48,390 nucleotides of DNA, from positions 1-48,390 of the forward strand of contig DATKWJ010000003.1 in NCBI GenBank assembly GCA_035529635.1, given 5' to 3'. The notes below the pieces were generated by a model. It worked only from the letters and a program-made list of their open reading frames with translations. It did not search any database and was not told where the DNA came from. Source of the DNA: Patescibacteria group bacterium (GTDB taxonomy: Bacteria > Patescibacteriota > Minisyncoccia > Minisyncoccales > RBG-13-42-11). Positions 34,181-48,321 of this stretch are shown here, piece after piece (position 1 is the stretch's first letter; every line of letters starts with the position of its first letter). The position numbers were made by a program, and so were the translations under genes.

Positions 34181-34213
34181 GCTGACCATCGTGGACAATG
34201 TTAGAACTATTTT
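34181..34213. repeat. Family-1 tRNA-3'-like repeat, divergent distal copy
   Basis: GCTGACCATCGTGGACAATGTTAGAACTATTTT aligns ungapped with the family-1 consensus. Confidence 0.7.
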
Positions 34214-38814: not shown

Positions 38815-38849
38815 AATGCCACTCGGTCTCTCGATACTTTGAGCTGACT

Positions 38850-38998
38850 GCTGTATATCCCGGTCTTGAACCGAGATTTTAAGGGAAATTCCGGGGTGTT
38901 TCCGGGTGTCTCAGTGACCCGTCTCGGTCAGGGCATTTTGAAGCTAAAATGAGACAAATGAGACACTATTTAGGGGTGTTTCGCGATGTCTCATTTTT
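38850..38998. repeat. Family-2 repeat copy A (tRNA T-arm mimic plus GAGAC boxes)
   Basis: 99/118 identical (hand count, ungapped) to 39750-39867; contains an AAAATGAGACA/TGTCTCATTTT inverted pair. Confidence 0.85.
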
Positions 38999-39313
38999 TA
39001 TCTTTTTCCAACTCCTCGCTCCGAAGAATCCGAAAAGACCAAAGAGACCGTAAAACCCGGGGCTGGCAATCAACCCGATTAGTCCGAATAATCCCAAAAA
39101 GCCGATTTTCCACAAATCTCTTGGTCCGCCCTTCCTAAAATAAGAGATGATATTTTAAATGACGGAAATGACAAAAGAAAGAAGGAAAGCAAAAGTTAGA
39201 ATAAAAAATACCGGCTCTTCAATTTTGAAATAAGCGGAAATGGCATTGTGTAAAACAACAGAAATTACACTTAAGCCAAATAGAATATAAGTTATTTTAG
39301 TTTGTTTTTCCAT
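38966..39313 (-). pseudogene. Small membrane-protein gene with an in-frame TAA at codon 53
   Basis: MEKQTKITYILFGLSVISVVLHNAI...VISVI*NIISYFRKGGPRDLWKIGFLGLFGLIGL...; the hydrophobic frame continues past the stop at 39155-39157. Confidence 0.7.
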
Positions 39314-39319
39314 ATTATT

Positions 39320-39703
39320 TTATTCCGTTCCCATCAAAATCTTCCCGCATTTTGGCTCGGCGGCTATTGCCAAATCAATTATGTCATTAAGTTCCGGTTC
39401 AACGGCAGTCAATTCTTCTCCGTTTTTCAGTTTCGCCCATACCGTTCTAGCGTGTGTCTGCCAAACGCTTTCAACCTCGCAATTGGCAATCGCTTGTTTA
39501 ATGGCCGGCCATTGCGGAGCATCTGGACAAAGCGCAAATTCACAGTTGGGACCTACGCGGCCGACATAGGAGCCGTCCGGACAAAGCTTGACGTCCTGGG
39601 TGCAGGCAACTGGCTCTTCGCCGCCAATTAAAAACCTCAAGCCAAACCAAATCCCAGTCAAAACAACCAATAAAACAATTAAAATAATAAATGTCTTCTT
39701 CAT
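39320..39703 (-). CDS. Small membrane-anchored Cys-motif protein
   Basis: N-terminal TM helix, then ACTQDVKLCPDGSYVGRVGPNCEFALCP, a motif I recall as common in CPR surface proteins. Confidence 0.8.
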   Translation of the reverse strand: MKKTFIILIVLLVVLTGIWFGLRFLIGGEEPVACTQDVKLCPDGSYVGRVGPNCEFALCPDAPQWPAIKQAIANCEVESVWQTHARTVWAKLKNGEELTAVEPELNDIIDLAIAAEPKCGKILMGTE

Positions 39704-39749
39704 ATTTTTATTCTACCAAAAAATCGGCCAAAAGAATAGGCGGCAATTA

Positions 39750-39899
39750 GCTGTGTCCCTCGGTCTAGAACCGAGGTTTTAAGGGAAAAATTGGGGCTTT
39801 TCGGGGTGTCTCATTGACGCGTCTCGGTCAGGGCGTTTTTAAGCTAAAATGGGACAAACGAGACACTGGTTGAGAGTATTTTTTTTGTGTCTCATTTTT
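39750..39899. repeat. Family-2 repeat copy B
   Basis: The minus strand ends CTCGG-TTCTAGA-CCGAG-GGACACA-G-CTA, the same geometry as the tRNA-Gln 3' half. Confidence 0.85.
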
Positions 39900-41222
39900 G
39901 GCTGAATTTTTATTTTCCCTTGCAGAAACAATAATCCTGGAAACAGATATTAAGTTGGAAATTAAGGCAATTAATATTAATACAAAAAATATTAAGCCTG
40001 TTATCCCTGCGAACATAATAAGAAGAAGTCTTCCTGGTCTTTTAAACTTAGGACCGTACCATACAAGTTTACGATCTGTTATGTCGCGATACTTAGTAGG
40101 TAAATAGTTAAGAAGTGCAAGTCCCATGACCGCAAATGCTGCAATGGGCCAAACTAATGAATTTTGACTAATTGCCCAATAGCCGTAAGCCATGCCAATT
40201 ATAATTAACATATCTATATAACGATCAAATGCGTCATCGAGCCAAGCACCAAATTTACTTGATAAAAACTTGAGTCTTGCAATTTCTCCGTCACAACCGT
40301 CGGTAATCGAAGTCAGCTGGGCCAATATTCCTCCTATAAAAATCCAGGGGAAACTTCCTTTTGCAAAAAGAAAGGCGGATGAAATCCCAATCATTAAATT
40401 GAGTATAGAAATTTTATTAGGAGTAAGCCCGGTTTTTACTAAGTATTTTGAAATAAATATAGAAATTTTTCGATTAATTATTTTTGATACAATTCCATCC
40501 TCGGATTTATTAAGATTCTTAAGAAGTTTTTTTTCTGCAAATTTGATATCTGCATAAGTATCGCAGTCTGACCAAAATCTTCCTTTAATGTTAAATGCCC
40601 TCAGTTTTCCTTCTTTTACAATGACTCTCATCCCATTAGTCAATGAATTTTTATGCTCTGAAATAGTTTTTTTTAGAACTTTAAAAATATAGGGGGAACA
40701 CAAAAACATTCCAGTATCGTAGGCATTATAGACATCGAGATTCTTGCTTATTGAATCAATTTTGTTATTTTTAACTAAAACTTTTGTGGTATCGCCTATA
40801 TCTAAAACGGAATCCATATTTTTATCTATAGCAAGAGCACACTCGTCCTTTTTTAATTTTATTCTCTTAAGCCTAAGGAGTGTTCTCCAGTCAAAGACAT
40901 GGTCAGACATTAGAAGAATAAAATTTTCCTTAAAATAATCTTTCGCTTTAAGGACAGAAATTCCATTTGCCTTCTCCCATTCATCATTCTGAATACAAGC
41001 GATTGAAACACCAAAACGACTACCGTCGCCGATAGTTTCCTTAAGTTCTTTTCCTTTATAGCCGGTAATAATTACAAACTCAAAAATACCTGCCTCTTTT
41101 GCTCCAAGAATAACTCTCTCAATGATCTTTAAGCCCAATAAGCTCATAAGCGATTTATGTCGCCCACGAGTTACCGACTGCATTCTTGTGCCATTACCGG
41201 CTGCAATAATTAATGCTTTCAT
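39828..41222 (-). CDS. Bifunctional NTP-transferase / CDP-alcohol phosphatidyltransferase (IPCT/DIPPS-like)
   Basis: MKALIIAAGNGTRM and LMSDH in the N-half; DGCDGEIAR...GAWLDDAFDR in the C-half; start reassigned to ATG at 41222; the C-terminus reads into repeat B. Confidence 0.85.
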   Translation of the reverse strand: MKALIIAAGNGTRMQSVTRGRHKSLMSLLGLKIIERVILGAKEAGIFEFVIITGYKGKELKETIGDGSRFGVSIACIQNDEWEKANGISVLKAKDYFKENFILLMSDHVFDWRTLLRLKRIKLKKDECALAIDKNMDSVLDIGDTTKVLVKNNKIDSISKNLDVYNAYDTGMFLCSPYIFKVLKKTISEHKNSLTNGMRVIVKEGKLRAFNIKGRFWSDCDTYADIKFAEKKLLKNLNKSEDGIVSKIINRKISIFISKYLVKTGLTPNKISILNLMIGISSAFLFAKGSFPWIFIGGILAQLTSITDGCDGEIARLKFLSSKFGAWLDDAFDRYIDMLIIIGMAYGYWAISQNSLVWPIAAFAVMGLALLNYLPTKYRDITDRKLVWYGPKFKRPGRLLLIMFAGITGLIFFVLILIALISNLISVSRIIVSARENKNSAKNETQKKYSQPVSRLSHFSLKTP

Positions 41223-41248
41223 GGTTGTTCCCAAATTAAAAATAAAAA

Positions 41249-41363
41249 GGCTGAGAACACGCATTCAACTGGCTTAAACCGCTTTGTATATTGCCTCCAA
41301 AAAGACAAAATTGACTGGTCAATAAACAGTTTATGTCGCCCACTTGTTTGCTCGGTTCCAACC
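41249..41363 (-). ncRNA. Candidate structured RNA / 5' leader (long imperfect hairpin followed by a U-tract)
   Basis: Lies downstream of TTGACA-17-TATTCT (41374-41402); nested complementary segments; followed by TTTTTATTTTT. Confidence 0.35.
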
Positions 41364-41438
41364 CATCCATCGTAGAATAGCTTAAATTTGGACTTGTGTC
41401 AATATAAAAACCCACTGATAAGTGAGTGAAGTAAGATT

Positions 41439-41546
41439 ACTGCGTACCTCAGTGCCTCAGTTTTGGACTCCAGTTTTAAGGGAAAAATTGGGGGCTTTTC
41501 AAGGTCTCTCACCGACGCGTCTCGATAGGGACTATTTAAGATAAAA
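41439..41546. repeat. Family-2 repeat copy C (degenerate)
   Basis: GTTTTAAGGGAAAAATTGGGGGCTTTTC..TCTCA..GACGCGTCTCG..AGGG..TTTAAGATAAAA aligns to copies A and B; internal CCTCAGT duplication. Confidence 0.75.
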
Positions 41547-41569
41547 CCTGTCCCATAGCAATCCTTGCT

Positions 41570-43384
41570 TTACTTCTGGGATGAGAACTCAGACTTTTCC
41601 TGCCTTTTAACACGGACACGATCAATTTCTGTAAGAAATTGCTTTCTTAAACGAATGCTTCCGGGAGTTATTTCAAGATATTCGTCGTCATTCATTATTT
41701 CTAACCCTCTCTCAAGAGTAAGTTCTGTCGGAGGAGTTAATGTTATCGCCTCGTCAGATCCTTTCGCCCGCATATTGGTAAGTTCTTTTCCTTTTGTCGG
41801 ATTTACCGCCATATCTTTCCCCTTTGAAGTGTTGCCGATGACCATACCCTCGTATACTTCTGTTCCCGGACCTATGTAGAGTATACCGCGCTTTTGAAGA
41901 CCCCACAAAGAAAACCCGAGAGATTTACCCGCCGCCATAGAAATCATTGAACCGACCCTCCGCCTGCGGATTTCTCCCACGTACGGCTTAAATCCCAGAA
42001 AGCGCGAAGAGAGGATGCCGTCACCTTTCGTATTCATTACAAATTGATTTCTGTATCCGAGAAGCCCCCGCGTGGGACCCTCTAATGTAAGCCTTACCGT
42101 ATCGCCTTTCCTGATAATATTTTTGAGGATGCAAGCTCGCGTACCGAGACTCTCAATGATCGTGCCTTGATATTCCCGGGGAGTATCGATAACGACTTCC
42201 TCAAACGGTTCTGTCTTGATTCCGTTTTCTTCGCGGATAATCACCCGCGGCTGGGAAACTTGCAATTCGTACCCCTCTCGCCTCATATTTTCAAGAAGTA
42301 TAACTATATGCAGTTCGCCTCTGCCATACACCTGAAATACATCCTTTGAGGTAAAATCAACCCGCAAACCGACATTTACTTCCAATTCTCTTTTTAAATA
42401 CTCGTGCAATTCGCGGGACGTTACGTGTTTTCCTTCCCGCCCCGCAAAATTTGAGCTGTTCACTAAAAAGTTAAGGGTAATAGCTGGTTCATCAATCGCG
42501 ATAACTGGAAGCGGTTCAGCTTTTTCATCAGTTGTCACCGTTTCTCCAATGTCTATGTCGGGGAGCCCTGAGATGAGTGCAATATCACCGGCACTTGTTT
42601 TTTCCGAATCTATTCTTTCCAATCCGTTGAAAGTAAAAACTTTGGTAATTTTTCCTGAGCGGGTTTCTCCGTTCGGTTTCTTAACGAATACGTCAGCTCC
42701 CGACTGAAGGACGCCTTCATACACTCTCCCTACCGCCATACGTCCCATAAAATTGTCGTAGGCAAGATTAAAAGGCTGGAATCGCAATGGTTTTTGTTCC
42801 AACGCCTCTGATGAAGCACAGGGAACATGAGAAAGAATGGTAGATAGGAGCGGCGTGAGATCTTTTGATTCATCGGCAAGTTTAAGTTTCGCGATTCCCT
42901 CGCGACCGATGGCATAGACGACCGGAAAACTTGATTGTTCATCGTTCGCGCCAAGCTCCAGGAAAAGTTCAAGCACTTGCTCTTCGGTACGCTTCAAGTC
43001 CGCAGCCGGTTTGTCTATTTTATTTATTACCACAATAGGTTTTAACCCCAATTCCAGAGATTTTTTTAAAACGAATCGGGTCTGCGGCATTGGCCCTTCC
43101 TGAGCATCCACGACAAGAAGTACGGAATCAATCGAACGCAGAACGCGCTCCACCTCTGATCCGAAATCGACATGGCCGGGAGTATCAACAATATTTATCT
43201 TGGTGCCTCGATAGGTAATCGCTGCATTTTTCGAGTATATCGTAATACCGCGCTCTAATTCCAGTGCGTTTGAATCCATTGATACCCCTTCTTTACAAGC
43301 CCCCGTTTGACGCATCAAGGCATCCGTTAAGGTTGTTTTGCCGTGATCAACGTGGGCAATAATAGCAATATTTCTTATTTCCAT
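41570..43384 (-). CDS. typA: Translational GTPase TypA/BipA
   Basis: IRNIAIIAHVDHGKTT, DTPGH, GRGELH and LEITPGSIRLRK motifs. Confidence 0.97.
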   Translation of the reverse strand: MEIRNIAIIAHVDHGKTTLTDALMRQTGACKEGVSMDSNALELERGITIYSKNAAITYRGTKINIVDTPGHVDFGSEVERVLRSIDSVLLVVDAQEGPMPQTRFVLKKSLELGLKPIVVINKIDKPAADLKRTEEQVLELFLELGANDEQSSFPVVYAIGREGIAKLKLADESKDLTPLLSTILSHVPCASSEALEQKPLRFQPFNLAYDNFMGRMAVGRVYEGVLQSGADVFVKKPNGETRSGKITKVFTFNGLERIDSEKTSAGDIALISGLPDIDIGETVTTDEKAEPLPVIAIDEPAITLNFLVNSSNFAGREGKHVTSRELHEYLKRELEVNVGLRVDFTSKDVFQVYGRGELHIVILLENMRREGYELQVSQPRVIIREENGIKTEPFEEVVIDTPREYQGTIIESLGTRACILKNIIRKGDTVRLTLEGPTRGLLGYRNQFVMNTKGDGILSSRFLGFKPYVGEIRRRRVGSMISMAAGKSLGFSLWGLQKRGILYIGPGTEVYEGMVIGNTSKGKDMAVNPTKGKELTNMRAKGSDEAITLTPPTELTLERGLEIMNDDEYLEITPGSIRLRKQFLTEIDRVRVKRQEKSEFSSQK

Positions 43385-43489
43385 AAAAAATAGGCCCTTC
43401 CCAGGCCGAGAATCCTAGATTGAATATAAACTAAAAAAATTCTTTTGTCAATAAAACAGAAGTCCGCTAGCCGCCCAATCGGGGTTATC

Positions 43490-44065
43490 CTACACAAAAC
43501 TCGCAATCTTTCGGGTTAATTCTTCTTTTCCTTCGTTTGTTTTGGCAGAATACTCCAAGACCGGTATATCTCGCACTTCTTCTCGGATCAAGGAAAGCTG
43601 TTTTCCTGCATCACTCTTAGTTAATTTGTCAATTTTGTTTGCAATGATGATAATTTGATGTTTATTTACCTTGAGAATTTTTATCATATCCCTATCTAAG
43701 GCAGTCAAGCCGACATTAGCGTCAATAATTAAGAAAACCGCTTTGGGCCTCGCACTGGAAAACTCCACATACCAAAAAATCCTTTTGATCATTTTGTTGC
43801 GCTCCAATATCGAACGCTTCGCATATCCATATCCGGGAAAATCCACAAAATAGAAAGAATTATTAATGCGGAAAAAATTCGCTTCACGTGTTTTCCCCGG
43901 AATTTTGCTTGTTTTTACAAGATCTTTTTTACCGACTAAAGAGTTTATCACGCTTGATTTTCCCGCATTGGAACGGCCAAAAAAAGCGATGTGCGGAAAA
44001 TTATCTTCCAGACCATAATCGTCTCCGATAACACCTTTAGCAAATTCTGCTTTTGATATTTTCAT
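43490..44065 (-). CDS. engB: Ribosome biogenesis GTPase YihA/YsxC/EngB
   Basis: GRSNAGKSS, PGKT, VDFPGYGYAK and NKIDK motifs. Confidence 0.95.
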   Translation of the reverse strand: MKISKAEFAKGVIGDDYGLEDNFPHIAFFGRSNAGKSSVINSLVGKKDLVKTSKIPGKTREANFFRINNSFYFVDFPGYGYAKRSILERNKMIKRIFWYVEFSSARPKAVFLIIDANVGLTALDRDMIKILKVNKHQIIIIANKIDKLTKSDAGKQLSLIREEVRDIPVLEYSAKTNEGKEELTRKIASFV

Positions 44066-45045
44066 AATTCTTTCTTTCCTTCTGTTTTTCCCAAAATTAA
44101 ACCATTGAGTATTTTCTTGACGAGTTCAATACTGTCCCGGCTAAATATGGAAATTGGCGTTGCGTTCTTATTTAACTCTTTGAGTTTCTCTGCTGCCCTG
44201 GCAACAATATCGGAAGAAACTGCGTCCTTTTTGCTTATAAAAAGATATTCCGGCTTTTCCAGAAGCAGTTTATTGTGTGTTTCTAATTCGCTGCGTACCG
44301 TTTTATAATCTAGGACCGGATCGACGGAATCTGCGGCGACAAAATGAAATATAATCTTTGTGCGTTCTATATGCCGTAAAAATTTAATTCCGAGACCCTT
44401 GCCCTTAGACGCGCCTTCAATAATCCCAGGAATATCAGCAAGTATCAAATCATAATACGCGCCTAAATTCGGCTCCAAGGTCGTGAACGGATAATTTGCC
44501 ACTTTGCTTTTGGCGTTGGTCAGTTCATTAAGCAAACTTGATTTCCCGACATTAGGCAGCCCCACAAATCCCACGTCAGCAATCATTTTTAACTCAAAGC
44601 GAACCTCAAGTGATTCTCCCGGCTCTCCGTATCCAAATTCTTTAGGTGTCGTATTGGTTGATGACCGAAAATTAAAATTGCCCTTTCCTCCACGTCCGCC
44701 TAGGGCAATCTGTACCCGCTGGCCGATTTTAGTGATTTCAACATGTTGGCCTATTGCCAAATTGCGAGCAACGGTTCCGACGGGAACCGTTAAGATCAGG
44801 TCCTTTCCGTCTCTGCCGCTGCGAAGTTGCGAGCGGCCGTCCTGTCCGTTTTCAGCCCTGACTTCTTTTTTGAAACGGAATTTCTTCAATGCAGTCAAAT
44901 CAGAAACACCTTCAATATAAATACTCCCTCCTTTGCCACCGTTGCCGCCGACAGGACCTAAAGACATTTTTGTTTTATTAAACGCCACTATTCCCTTTCC
45001 TCCATCTCCCGCCATTGCTCTTATTGTTACATCATCAACAATCAT
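44062..45045 (-). CDS. obgE: GTPase ObgE/CgtA (no C-terminal extension)
   Basis: Gly-rich Obg fold, GLPNVGKSS, ANYPFTTLEPNLG and DIPGIIEGAS motifs. Confidence 0.95.
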   Translation of the reverse strand: MIVDDVTIRAMAGDGGKGIVAFNKTKMSLGPVGGNGGKGGSIYIEGVSDLTALKKFRFKKEVRAENGQDGRSQLRSGRDGKDLILTVPVGTVARNLAIGQHVEITKIGQRVQIALGGRGGKGNFNFRSSTNTTPKEFGYGEPGESLEVRFELKMIADVGFVGLPNVGKSSLLNELTNAKSKVANYPFTTLEPNLGAYYDLILADIPGIIEGASKGKGLGIKFLRHIERTKIIFHFVAADSVDPVLDYKTVRSELETHNKLLLEKPEYLFISKKDAVSSDIVARAAEKLKELNKNATPISIFSRDSIELVKKILNGLILGKTEGKKEL

Positions 45046-45211
45046 ATCATCAGTATAAGCTATTTTAATTCATATTAAAAATTAAATATCATGCTTATAA
45101 ACAAAAAAACCGCCCCTTCCTGAAAAGTAAACTAATCCTGAAAGATAAAAAAATCCTGCTTCAGTAAAAAAAATTCCCTTTCAGGCAGTTTTTGAAGCTA
45201 AATACCTCAGC

Positions 45212-45265
45212 CACCTGACTTAGCATATGACTGCTGGCGCTATGGGACGATGTTAGAACCTGTTT
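45212..45265. repeat. Family-1 repeat with an extended left arm shared with the tRNA junction
   Basis: CACCTGACTTAGCATATGACT-GCTGGCGCTATGGGACGATGTTAGAACCTGTTT. Confidence 0.9.
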
Positions 45266-45278
45266 ATTATTTTCTAAA

Positions 45279-45731
45279 TTAAGAATGTTTACTTAAAATA
45301 AAATTTTTAAGCCAATCGCTATCTTTAACAAAAAGATCTAAACTACCATCTGGCTTGTGGGTAGTCGATCCTTTATGGGCAGTTATTTGCTCAGGAGAAG
45401 ATGTCCAAATGTTTACCTTAGAAAGGCCAAATACTCGGTGCAGTATCCCTTGAACATTATCTACATTTTGAATAATTGTGAAGGGAATAGACTTAGATTT
45501 CTTAATAATAATTCCTGAGTTTATTGTAATTTTATTATCTTCAACTATAAAACTAAAAGCATTATAAAAGAGGAAAAGATATAAGGTAAAGGGTAAACCT
45601 ATAAAAATAATTAGAATCCAAAATAACGAATGCCAAAATAAAGATGCTAATAATATTAATCCAAAAATTTTAGTTAACCAATACCATTTAAATTGTTTTG
45701 GTAATTTATTTGGAGTGTTGAGGTTTATCAT
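45279..45731 (-). CDS. Bacterial PH-domain (bPH_2/YdbS-like) membrane protein
   Basis: Two TM helices, then ITINSGII...IPFTIIQNVDNVQGILHRVFGLSKVNIWTS. Confidence 0.8.
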   Translation of the reverse strand: MINLNTPNKLPKQFKWYWLTKIFGLILLASLFWHSLFWILIIFIGLPFTLYLFLFYNAFSFIVEDNKITINSGIIIKKSKSIPFTIIQNVDNVQGILHRVFGLSKVNIWTSSPEQITAHKGSTTHKPDGSLDLFVKDSDWLKNFILSKHS

Positions 45732-45793
45732 ATTGAATTAAAATTATTTATAATTAATTTTCAACTTGGTTTGATGAATAGTACTAGATGATA

Positions 45794-45826
45794 GCTGGGG
45801 CTATGGGACGATGTTAGAACCTATTT
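45794..45826. repeat. Family-1 repeat
   Basis: GCTGGGGCTATGGGACGATGTTAGAACCTATTT, preceded by ATGATA as at the tRNA junction. Confidence 0.9.
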
Positions 45827-45852
45827 AACCCTATGCCCTAGTACAATTTTTT

Positions 45853-46461
45853 TTACTTAAGACAAAAATCTAGAAATCGTTTTCCAAATTCACTCAAGCT
45901 TATACTCTCATGGATTCCACCGTCTGATCCGCCAAGCGCTATGGAACCCAATGTAGCTGTAATTATTCCCCATGATTTTAATTTATAAATAGACCCCTGT
46001 ATTATTGATTTTTCTATGCCAGGTTTATTAATTGATAATGAATCAACTACGCCGGTCTGTTCGTTTAAAAATTTTATTACTTCTGCTTCTAGTAATGAGA
46101 TGTCAGTTAAGATATCTAAAAATTTCTTACGTTCATCGTAATTTCTATTAACGGGTTGAATTAAAGTGTTCTTAAAATAATTTTTGAAAAATTCTCTCTT
46201 TTCAATTAATGGTTCTTTTTCAATTTTTTCATGCAGTTGCTCTATAATCGCCGCTAGTTCATCAGAATTATGTTCTCCAATATCTTTAATTTTATTCTTA
46301 ATTAAAGCAACCTCTTCTTTAATCTCCTTGTAAAAAGTTTCGATTCTATGAAATTGTCTTTTTTGTTTACTACCAAAATACAGAGTGGCAAGCGAACCTC
46401 CAATATACGGTACAGCTTCTACTAATGCTTGGATTGTTAATTCTTTATCGACTTTAGACAT
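45853..46461 (-). CDS. Hypothetical protein (possibly DUF4393/Abi-alpha-like, with a C-terminal winged helix)
   Basis: VPYIGGSL N-terminus and LSEFGKRFLDFC C-terminus; family resemblance only. Confidence 0.7.
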   Translation of the reverse strand: MSKVDKELTIQALVEAVPYIGGSLATLYFGSKQKRQFHRIETFYKEIKEEVALIKNKIKDIGEHNSDELAAIIEQLHEKIEKEPLIEKREFFKNYFKNTLIQPVNRNYDERKKFLDILTDISLLEAEVIKFLNEQTGVVDSLSINKPGIEKSIIQGSIYKLKSWGIITATLGSIALGGSDGGIHESISLSEFGKRFLDFCLK

Positions 46462-46484
46462 ATAAAATTTATGAAGTCTTATTA

Positions 46485-46517
46485 GTTGCGGGGCCTGGAC
46501 GATGTTAGAACCTGTTT
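46485..46517. repeat. Family-1 repeat, tRNA-hybrid copy
   Basis: GTTGCGGGGCCTGGACGATGTTAGAACCTGTTT; the left half matches the tRNA-Gln 3' end. Confidence 0.9.
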
Positions 46518-46851
46518 AATAGAGTTTTCCGCCAATTTCAGCGATATCCTTGTCGGGAACGATTAAAACACAATTCCCCTCTTTATCAGGAACGCCCAGA
46601 GTTAGTACCTCTGATAGAAATGGACCAATTTTTCTTGGCGGAAAATTCACTACACCTAAAACTAATTTATCTTTTAACCCTTCTTTCGTGTATAAAGCAA
46701 CCAGTTGGGCGGATGAGCTTTTGATGCCGATTTCCGAACCGAAATCAATCTTAAGTTTGTAAGACGGTTTTTTCGCTTCGGGAAAATCTTCAATTTCAAT
46801 TATTTTCCCGACCCTGATATCTAACTTTTCAAAATCTTCCATCGTTGCCAT
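46516..46851 (-). CDS. csaA: tRNA-binding / secretion chaperone CsaA (Trbp111 family)
   Basis: FEKLDIRVGKI, KPSYKLKIDFG, SSAQL and VVNFPPRKIGPFLSEVLTLG motifs. Confidence 0.92.
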   Translation of the reverse strand: MATMEDFEKLDIRVGKIIEIEDFPEAKKPSYKLKIDFGSEIGIKSSSAQLVALYTKEGLKDKLVLGVVNFPPRKIGPFLSEVLTLGVPDKEGNCVLIVPDKDIAEIGGKLY

Positions 46852-46863
46852 ATTTTTTATTTA

Positions 46864-46896
46864 GCTGGGGCTATGGGACGATGTTAGAACCTGTTT
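46864..46896. repeat. Family-1 repeat
   Basis: GCTGGGGCTATGGGACGATGTTAGAACCTGTTT. Confidence 0.9.
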
Positions 46897-46921
46897 TAAC
46901 GAATGTCTAATATAATTTCTA

Positions 46922-47605
46922 CTATTCTTTAATTAATTCTTGAATTTTCTTTTTTCTATATTCTGGATCAAGTTTTGTTTTTAACAAAAAATACCATCTT
47001 ATCCAAAAAAATGATCTTATGAGCTTTAACGTCAAGCGTATTTCTGCTATTAACGGACTAATATCTTCTCGAGCTTTCTTCATATTAGTCAAAAATTCGC
47101 TAGTTTCATTTCTAATTTTATCAACATTTTCTCTTGCGGTTTTTAAAAAATCTTGTTCAGCTCTCTTTAGCATAGTATCCTTTGAAAGATCAGAGTGAAT
47201 TTTGAGATATCTATTAAACGTCATCACATTAGTGTTGAATAACCTTAATTTGATAATAAATTTAAGTATATTTTCTGAAACTTTGAAATTGCTTATTTTT
47301 TGATATATGAATTCTTCTATCGGAAAAAAATATAACTGATTTAAACAAATGCTTATGGGTTTGAGCTTAAAACCTTTCATTATTACTTCATAGTTTTTAA
47401 TATTGATTTCTAAAAAATAAATCTGTAAGGCAATATATTCTTCTATTCTTTCTAATTCTGCAATAACTTTTTTTTTCTTTCTTAATGAAGAAATTATGGT
47501 TTCTCCTAAAATAAAAAAGCAAAAAGCAAAAAAAGCGCCAAAAAAAGCCGCGATTATTTGAATGTATCCTTGTTGTGTATTATTTATTATTTCCATGCAA
47601 ACCAT
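46922..47605 (-). CDS. Hypothetical protein with N-terminal TM helix
   Basis: AT-rich ORF of up to 227 aa, coupled to the upstream ORF; start may be the second Met. Confidence 0.7.
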   Translation of the reverse strand: MVCMEIINNTQQGYIQIIAAFFGAFFAFCFFILGETIISSLRKKKKVIAELERIEEYIALQIYFLEINIKNYEVIMKGFKLKPISICLNQLYFFPIEEFIYQKISNFKVSENILKFIIKLRLFNTNVMTFNRYLKIHSDLSKDTMLKRAEQDFLKTARENVDKIRNETSEFLTNMKKAREDISPLIAEIRLTLKLIRSFFWIRWYFLLKTKLDPEYRKKKIQELIKE

Positions 47606-48174
47606 TATTGTAGATCGTTTAATTGAGACAAAATTGTTTCAATCTGAGCACCTAACTCAACGGCAGTTAAACCATCTTTTGTTTCTTTACTCATATCATC
47701 AACAATAAAACCCTTCATGTGTTTTCCCGATTCATATACTCCCTTAAGCTCCTCGTCTAATTTGTTTTTGTCTTTATATTCTAAAAGACCATGAATAACA
47801 TCGTTCCTTTTTTTACGATAGATATTTAATTTTTCATATAAAGTTTTTTCGATTTTTCCAGAAATAAATAATTCATCGATAAGCCGCGCCAGTTCAAAAC
47901 TTTTAAATTTTTTTTCTAGGATAGCATTTTGTAAAATTAGTGGTAAAATTTTTTTAAAAGCGTAATCTTTTATTATTCCTTCAATTATACAAGATTGTAT
48001 TAAAAATGCTTCTAAATAATCTTTTTTAAGAAAGGCTCCTTCTGCTCGATCTACTAAATCTTCGTAATTTTTATTTTCAATAACCTCCCGAGATATCTTT
48101 TTCAACTCTTGTTTTTGCAATTCTAAATTATCTTTTAATGATTTTATTTGCGCCTTTAATTCTTCTGTAGTCAT
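47605..48174 (-). CDS. Hypothetical helical protein with an RxxxxH (HEPN-like) motif
   Basis: YLEAFLIQSCIIEG...RKKRNDVIHG; the HEPN resemblance is an inference. Confidence 0.65.
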   Translation of the reverse strand: MTTEELKAQIKSLKDNLELQKQELKKISREVIENKNYEDLVDRAEGAFLKKDYLEAFLIQSCIIEGIIKDYAFKKILPLILQNAILEKKFKSFELARLIDELFISGKIEKTLYEKLNIYRKKRNDVIHGLLEYKDKNKLDEELKGVYESGKHMKGFIVDDMSKETKDGLTAVELGAQIETILSQLNDLQ

Positions 48175-48250
48175 GTTTTATAAAATTTTCTTAATTTTTT
48201 CTTTCATAGATTTCTGATGCGTTTCGGTCACCTGGCTTAGCATATGATAG

Positions 48251-48321
48251 CTGCGGGGCTTGGATTCGAACCAAGATACACGCCTCCAGAGGGCGCGGTC
48301 CTACCGTTAGACGACCCCGCA
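48251..48321 (-). tRNA. tRNA-Gln(CUG), CCA not encoded
   Basis: TGCGGGG...CCCCGCA-G acceptor; GCGCC-ct CTG ga-GGCGT anticodon arm; CTTGG-TTCGAAT-CCAAG T-arm. Confidence 0.95.

Follow-up and report, generated by a model that had tools for sequence, protein, structure and literature searches.

The question raised by the locus behind the tRNA-Gln(CTG) gene of a patescibacterium (order Minisyncoccales, genome size 546 kb) is what its four direct repeats are and how the small, unrelated genes between them came to be lined up there. The window, that is, the whole analysed stretch of 48,390 nucleotides (contig DATKWJ010000003.1, positions 1 to 48,390, of assembly GCA_035529635.1), had been described in a first-pass annotation as carrying an integron-like array of gene cassettes at the tRNA 3' end. 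Judged from their sequence, the repeats match attP-type half-sites of large serine recombinases (LSRs), and the chances are somewhat better than even that the array consists of four recombinase-less units, resembling cis-mobilizable elements (CIMEs), which were stacked at the tRNA 3' end by visiting LSR elements. Its integron-like appearance is likely that of a hotspot for gene pickup, built by a different enzyme that comes from elsewhere.

The identity of the repeats follows from their geometry and from their company. Counted from the T|G of the core GCTG, which arm symmetry points to as the centre, the motif TT(A/C)GA starts at 18 bp in 54 of 65 arms of the window's repeat type (R1), and at 13 bp in all 45 tRNA-Gln arms as well as in all 11 arms of a second type (R2). 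In serine integrases, the motif of the zinc domain lies 5 bp closer to the centre in attB than in attP (PMC3783163), which is the shift found here (18 vs 13). Arms of this kind also occur at the ends of LSR elements or in an attP (L048, L115, L152, L246): R1 closes 10-14-kb elements with long LSRs at tRNA-Gln or tRNA-Asn (L115, L152, L246), of which the L246 element occupies the orthologous ftsX-tRNA-Gln(CTG) site, and on the phage contig L048 an intact LSR gene of 512 aa reads over a tRNA-like core and the motif. Motif geometry, element ends and phage read-through therefore indicate that long LSR elements have R1 as their attP arm. The repeats had been taken for look-alikes of the T-loop and acceptor of the tRNA, and they are indeed tRNA-like, but not merely so, as the motif geometry is that of a serine-integrase half-site. 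Target tRNAs beyond Gln are Asn, Trp, His and Lys, and LSR loci run into or abut a tRNA 3' end in 13 of 30 cases. The proposal that the recombinase gene overlaps its own att site with its C-terminus is thus borne out by these loci and by the phage contig, but the predicted tail DDVRT is not: the frame on the phage contig differs from it, none of 120 homologues of the LSR on contig C19 of this genome ends in it, look-alike tails being found only in L154 and L190, and the short LSRs discussed below do not overlap their att sites.

The features of the locus are the following, from left to right:

34181..34213, plus strand: older R1 half-site
38820..38885, plus strand: older site made up of a canonical T arm and an R2-type arm, core at 38850
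45207..45232, plus strand: outer T' arm, forming the left half of the outermost att site and likely terminating an older unit
45233..45265, plus strand: repeat 1, core GCTG plus putative attP-type half-site (R1, GCGC variant), distal end of a 3,017-bp block, motif 18 bp from the centre
45279..45731, minus strand: gene of unit 1, membrane protein of 150 aa with a bacterial PH domain (PF03703, E 6e-12)
45794..45826, plus strand: repeat 2, R1 half-site, left side without T arm
45853..46461, minus strand: gene of unit 2, 202 aa, weak likeness to Abi_alpha below the cut-off (E 3e-4)
46485..46517, plus strand: repeat 3, R1 half-site with tRNA-like inner part, core GTTG
46516..46851, minus strand: gene of unit 3, csaA, chaperone / tRNA-binding protein of 111 aa (TIGR02222, above the cut-off)
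46864..46896, plus strand: repeat 4, R1 half-site, consensus copy
46922..48174, minus strand: two genes of unit 4, 227 aa (46922-47605) and 189 aa (47605-48174), no family
48224..48249, plus strand: inner T' arm, at the proximal end of the block and contiguous with the tRNA as an attL-like site
48250..48321, minus strand: tRNA-Gln(CTG), its 3' end being the source of the core and of the attB-type half-site, motif 13 bp from the centre

The layout given earlier was reproduced: the four repeats are spaced by 561, 691 and 379 bp, the last one lies 1386 bp from the GCTG at 48250, and all five open reading frames (ORFs) are on the minus strand, averted from the tRNA. The packing is as tight as had been claimed, with the csaA ATG 12 nt from a core and stop-to-repeat gaps of 13, 26, -2 (the overlap of csaA) and 25 nt. 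The GC content of the array is 0.26-0.35 vs 0.42 for the contig. The repeats are real, as a weight matrix yields 10 matches in this genome (the four of the array, 34181, three on contig C18, two on C19) against none when the genome is reversed, but to call them near-identical is too strong for the copy at 46485, which differs at 7 of 30 positions and is tRNA-like in its first part. Contig C6 stops precisely at the core / tRNA-Gln 3' end, and the cores of older sites lie farther left, at 38850 and 34181.

What distinguishes the outer ends of the array is a second arm, T', which stands beside both of them (45207-45236 and 48224-48253 are 83% alike), whereas the three inner repeats have no T' left arm. 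With the copies at 45207-45232 and 48224-48249, the 3,017-bp block gains matching ends, and these ends, when joined, share 60 of 63 positions with the natural site of L069/L080. By sequence, the best-supported mobile unit is the whole block rather than any single inner unit; of the earlier idea that minimal cassettes were integrated serially, the addition at the tRNA end is supported. T' is present in 37 of 401 genomes (control 1), and in all 49 distinct T' sites a GCTG-like core comes next, followed by a tRNA (24) or by another arm (25). Its sequence varies that of the final module in a non-coding T segment, which is about 110 bp long, has a 35-bp period and is found trimmed to variable lengths. 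Among 18 arms of the T class, a strict pattern places the motif at 18 bp in 6. In L073:1497-1626 and its relatives, the T segment comprises three modules at the 35-bp period and a short inverted repeat; it could be a set of accessory binding sites or a gene-less mini-element. Synonymous-looking changes had suggested an LSR tail, and this was rejected, since a (weak) search found no protein, the open frames are 20-131 aa long, bar one match that comprises only the tRNA, and the indels do not come in threes.

That alleles switch at this point can be seen in the contigs of three metagenome runs, which are possibly the window's own source and not necessarily independent. In all three runs, the contig on the obg side stops at 45236, from where one branch is this array and the other enters a different arm; the alternative branch joins the tRNA in runs X1 and X2 with depths of 7.9 and 5.2 vs 15-20 for the array, depth being no measure of the share of cells. 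A record of 982 nt in X2 shares the exact 30-mer 45207-45236, then differs, and ends on the tRNA; the minor strain therefore has as its allele a unit of some 0.93 kb, which leaves no room for an LSR. A minor strain thus carries a different unit, the switch lying exactly after GCTG, and its arm resembles those in L197 and L123. Two loci of another organism, L073 and L078, share 1,617 nt without a difference and diverge after GCTG, one continuing into tRNA-Gln and the other into a new arm, which by sequence would be an unfilled and a filled site. Both cases agree with the anchoring at the tRNA and the polar addition at its end that had been proposed. The joint 45236->48250 was at first a candidate for an empty site, until the 982-nt record revealed another unit. 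Other repeat-to-tRNA joints (depth 6-13) exceed the depth of the flank, probably belong to other organisms and were left uncounted, and a 54-nt record at 45212-45260 was rejected as a circle because it shows 2 differences, against the 3 expected of the predicted circle.

The likely enzyme for the 3,017-bp block, as far as sequence comparison tells, belongs to a clade of short LSRs that carry T', and it would be supplied from outside, because no member of this clade was found in the assembly. T' lies 0.08-0.85 kb downstream of short LSR genes at tRNA-Gln in four genomes (G065, G257, G289, G379), and the T'-linked short LSRs group in one clade of 8 among 19 proteins (support 100/100), a pairing that is observed as counts and in which kin share labels. 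T'-like arms are also present, at tRNA-Trp or tRNA-Lys, in the three members whose selection had nothing to do with T', the arm of L188 being more diverged. In these relatives, T' marks LSRs of 431-440 aa with about 58 coiled-coil residues fewer (8 of 8 members): the short family has 77-81 residues where long relatives have 136-137, and the catalytic serine and the four-Cys zinc ribbon are kept. In a structure model of the genome's own short LSR, one helix of 21 residues replaces the long hairpin (pLDDT 80). When the coiled coil of the LI integrase was deleted by engineering, the enzyme excised between all four site pairs in cis.

Candidates for helpers are also seen in this genome. On contig C18 (G000:C18:640-18648), a 17-kb island at tRNA-Asn holds restriction-modification-like cargo, ParB-methylase, a helix-turn-helix (HTH) gene, a terminase-like gene and a short LSR of 451 aa, and is followed by three R1 sites that bound small units, so that helper and cassettes stand together in one genome. 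A long LSR of 546 aa occurs twice: the gene at C19:1993-3633 reads across an attP-like join, and a copy 96% alike, at the 3' end of contig C20, is joined to tRNA-His. Homologues of the LSRs carry Patescibacteria labels, as expected for this host.

From all this, a sequence of events can be proposed. Helper LSR elements of 10-17 kb would integrate at the tRNA, strand exchange presumably being centred on the T|G of GCTG, and would excise at a farther or an inner site, thereby carrying or depositing small adjacent units, while the newest DNA would enter beside the tRNA and displace older units outward. The unit that is still mobile would be the 3,017-bp block, which ends in a T' arm on one side and in an R1 arm on the other. 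The inner repeats would be attR-like junctions, predicted to be usable for excision in cis by a relaxed enzyme and probably not self-sufficient. That the recombinase acts from outside the array had been expected already, and indeed no array unit has a recombinase gene. Among the units delimited elsewhere, the 7 with an LSR are without exception tRNA-proximal, and no LSR occurs in the 144 inner ones; 28 of 35 tRNA-proximal units lack one as well. An LSR match exists in 12 of 25 genomes with at least three motif copies vs 63 of 151 overall, numbers that were tallied by hand on the assumption that the LSR search covered the genomes up to G170. As only about half of the array-rich genomes have a match and most proximal units are LSR-less, the arrays need no resident enzyme. 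For transcription, the tRNA promoter had been suggested as the source, but the tRNA starts 3 nt past the ftsX stop and there is therefore no space for a promoter of its own; the cargo is likely transcribed by read-through of the ftsEX-tRNA transcript (prfB-ftsE-ftsX operon). A promoter scan of the array stayed at chance level (13 vs 15.7), and no terminators were found between the units. Each repeat contains a -10-like hexamer, TAACAT, that points at the next gene (minus strand, e.g. 46881-46886).

The repeats are widespread in the order, as a scan proposed earlier has now found. A 15-nt core motif is present in 16 of 41 relatives and in 144 of 401 order-level genomes, the own genome included (1 control hit), and a 23-nt Gln-type repeat at 12 loci in genomes (5 contigs) and at 27 in metagenomes. 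On viral contigs, the Gln-type repeat has 0 matches; the short core has 23, of which 2 resemble att sites (L038, L048) and the others were dismissed as chance. Across 251 non-viral sources, 179 distinct units were delimited in loci that had been selected by motif or LSR, so that the unit counts are biased and the proportions no census: the median size is 1.0 kb, 152 units are at most 3 kb, 84 of these 152 contain one gene, 199 of 207 unit ORFs are directed away from the tRNA, and the median distance from stop to repeat is 52 nt. Stacks reach more than 10 units. In L004 (G008:C5), whose genome has no LSR match, tRNA-Gln(TTG) is followed by some 18 sites, including a tandem duplication of about 6.46 kb, and L231 (G055:C1) has eleven R1 sites within 6.4 kb, with single-gene units of 0.3-1 kb and no tRNA-proximal unit recorded.

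As to the cargo, the PH-domain gene of the window has a 56% homologue behind a T-plus-R1 site in G270, and the 189-aa protein a 34% match in the array locus L079, while a defence-model search of the unit 2 and unit 4 proteins gave no convincing match. The csaA gene is found in 17 of 400 other genomes and in none of 21 of the own family, and at 18 homologous loci no arm adjoins it, so it is an ordinary gene elsewhere. In L210 and L211 (two genomes), csaA starts directly behind the 3' end of a tRNA-Gly, and this position suggests a possible capture of genes that follow tRNAs.

Several other explanations have to be compared with the stacking by visiting LSR elements. If the array worked like an integron, each single-gene unit would excise as a circle of 0.3-2 kb and reinsert at the tRNA through an LSR that acts in trans and needs only the core and one arm. 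The small size of the units, mostly with one gene averted from the tRNA, fits this well, as does the recurrence of one gene at the same position in units of different families (e.g. a 75-aa gene in L195, L231 and L005), the LSR-less majority of proximal units, the small size of both alleles in this population and the permissive excision by the coiled-coil-less LI integrase. The inner left arms, however, have no common motif, 87 of the 152 small units have neither T arm nor hairpin, the circles of 379, 561 and 691 bp and the empty sites that had been predicted were not seen in the run contigs, and the comparison of 35 loci found no reordering of units and one addition only, so that such a mechanism is possible but unlikely. 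Doubtful to the same degree is the wider claim that the candidate phyla radiation (CPR) possesses an integron equivalent with serine chemistry, in which a large natural LSR family, having lost the coiled coil that controls directionality, recombines any tRNA-type site pair, so that single-gene cassettes of 0.3-2 kb, among them captured housekeeping genes like csaA and yihA, are excised, travel and are reinserted at tRNA-Gln in trans in at least a third of the order's genomes.

The repeats may instead be inert relics, each the attR of a large element that was later trimmed, with alleles spread by homologous replacement between conserved flanks. T segments are indeed cut to variable lengths, LSR fragments occur, arrays persist without LSR, and CIMEs have been described as decay products (PMC7563491). 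Yet two allele switches lie exactly at the core, the arms are nearly invariant between families while the cargo diverges, and four cycles of insertion and trimming would be needed although the 1.2-kb obg flank is one shared sequence, which makes this explanation improbable. That the repeats are attC sites or RNA-processing signals, the latter an alternative raised at the outset, is hardly credible. TTCTAAC resembles the attC inverse core and the arm mimics a tRNA 3' end, but the folds stay within the range of shuffled sequences, GTTRRRY follows downstream in 1 of 4 copies, paired boxes are absent, and the arm is tied to LSR elements. IntI was not found, the only tyrosine recombinase being Xer-like and the integron models scoring 44.8 of 435 and 81.9 of 265, and an Rfam search of the array matched only the tRNA. 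The earlier statement that these are not attC sites thus stands.

The stacking by visiting LSR elements has its own difficulties. No circle, empty site or loss of a single unit was seen in the runs, in which rare forms go missing from the contigs and a k-mer graph conceals any deletion between identical repeats. In T', the canonical 18-bp motif cannot be recognised, and the T'-clade enzyme is missing from the assembly, the own LSRs being 56% and 27% identical and outside the clade. Large arrays exist in genomes without any LSR match (G008, G045), and the LI integrase without its coiled coil failed to integrate. The arm on the csaA stop codon is not accounted for, nor does the placement behind tRNA-Gly explain this 3' arm. 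The way in which the loci were selected, which biases the unit counts, also counts on this side, and kin among them are not independent.

Integrons and clusters of attC sites lacking integrases (CALIN) consist of small units in the same orientation, with a site at the 3' end of the gene and growth at one end. The array is like them in layout and polarity, its small units having the same orientation and being added at one end, but it has neither IntI nor attC hairpin, and its chemistry is probably that of serine recombinases. Its closest relatives, by analogy, are the ssrA islands of Dehalococcoides and the CIMEs, of which it would be a miniature with deeper stacks. In Dehalococcoides, tandem islands lie behind one RNA gene, the 3' end of the gene for the LSR DsiB (about 540 aa) overlaps attL, and the module includes ParB and methylase genes, 15 of 31 islands being without module (McMurdie et al. 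2011, PMC3146451). Unlike there, the target is a tRNA in place of ssrA, the units are mostly 0.3-2 kb with a single gene, the repeat would be an attP arm and not a 20-bp copy of the gene end, and a second, coiled-coil-short LSR family has an arm of its own; in place of the six-gene dsi module, the helper has ParB-methylase, HTH, terminase-like gene and LSR. CIMEs and microCIMEs keep att sites without recombinase, as the window's array does. They lie in tandem behind an active element and are moved by accretion; those described measure 1.2-13 kb, or 130-220 bp for gene-less microCIMEs, and are known from integrative conjugative and integrative mobilizable elements of streptococci in stacks of 2-3, compared with more than 10 here (PMC7563491). 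The att-site model of LI/A118 (Rutherford et al. 2013, PMC3783163) shares the 5-bp motif shift, and the candidates have its catalytic Ser and four-Cys ribbon, but hybrid pairings (T-tRNA targets, T-R2 ends), which wild-type integrases mostly reject, recur here, and in the short family the greater part of the coiled coil is missing. In the tycheposons of Prochlorococcus, new elements at a tRNA push older ones inward in a similar way, but they are multi-kb elements with mostly tyrosine recombinases and partial-tRNA repeats (bioRxiv 10.1101/2020.12.28.424599).

Examined directly in the present case were the allele switch at the core, the cognate ends of the block and the pairing of T' with the coiled-coil-short clade; no account of such arrays in Patescibacteria/CPR and nothing on natural coiled-coil-less LSRs was found in the literature covered, which left out most subscription journals. 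The arrays offer a testable route by which ultra-small bacteria (0.5-0.8-Mb genomes) acquire or exchange accessory genes singly or in small numbers. With T', a defined att arm is paired with a clade of naturally coiled-coil-short serine recombinases, and these enzymes could put the coiled-coil model of directionality to a natural test and are candidates for compact, possibly bidirectional integrases that target tRNAs.

Two minor observations concern the neighbourhood and the helpers. The GTPase genes obg, yihA and bipA sit between att sites (window 38850-45232), in G023 and L062 repeats flank yihA, and only 18 of 41 relatives yielded a full-length match to obg, so these genes may be old cargo. 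In L136 and L140, inverted repeats about 2.5 kb apart lie just upstream of long LSR genes, and they possibly bound an invertible segment.

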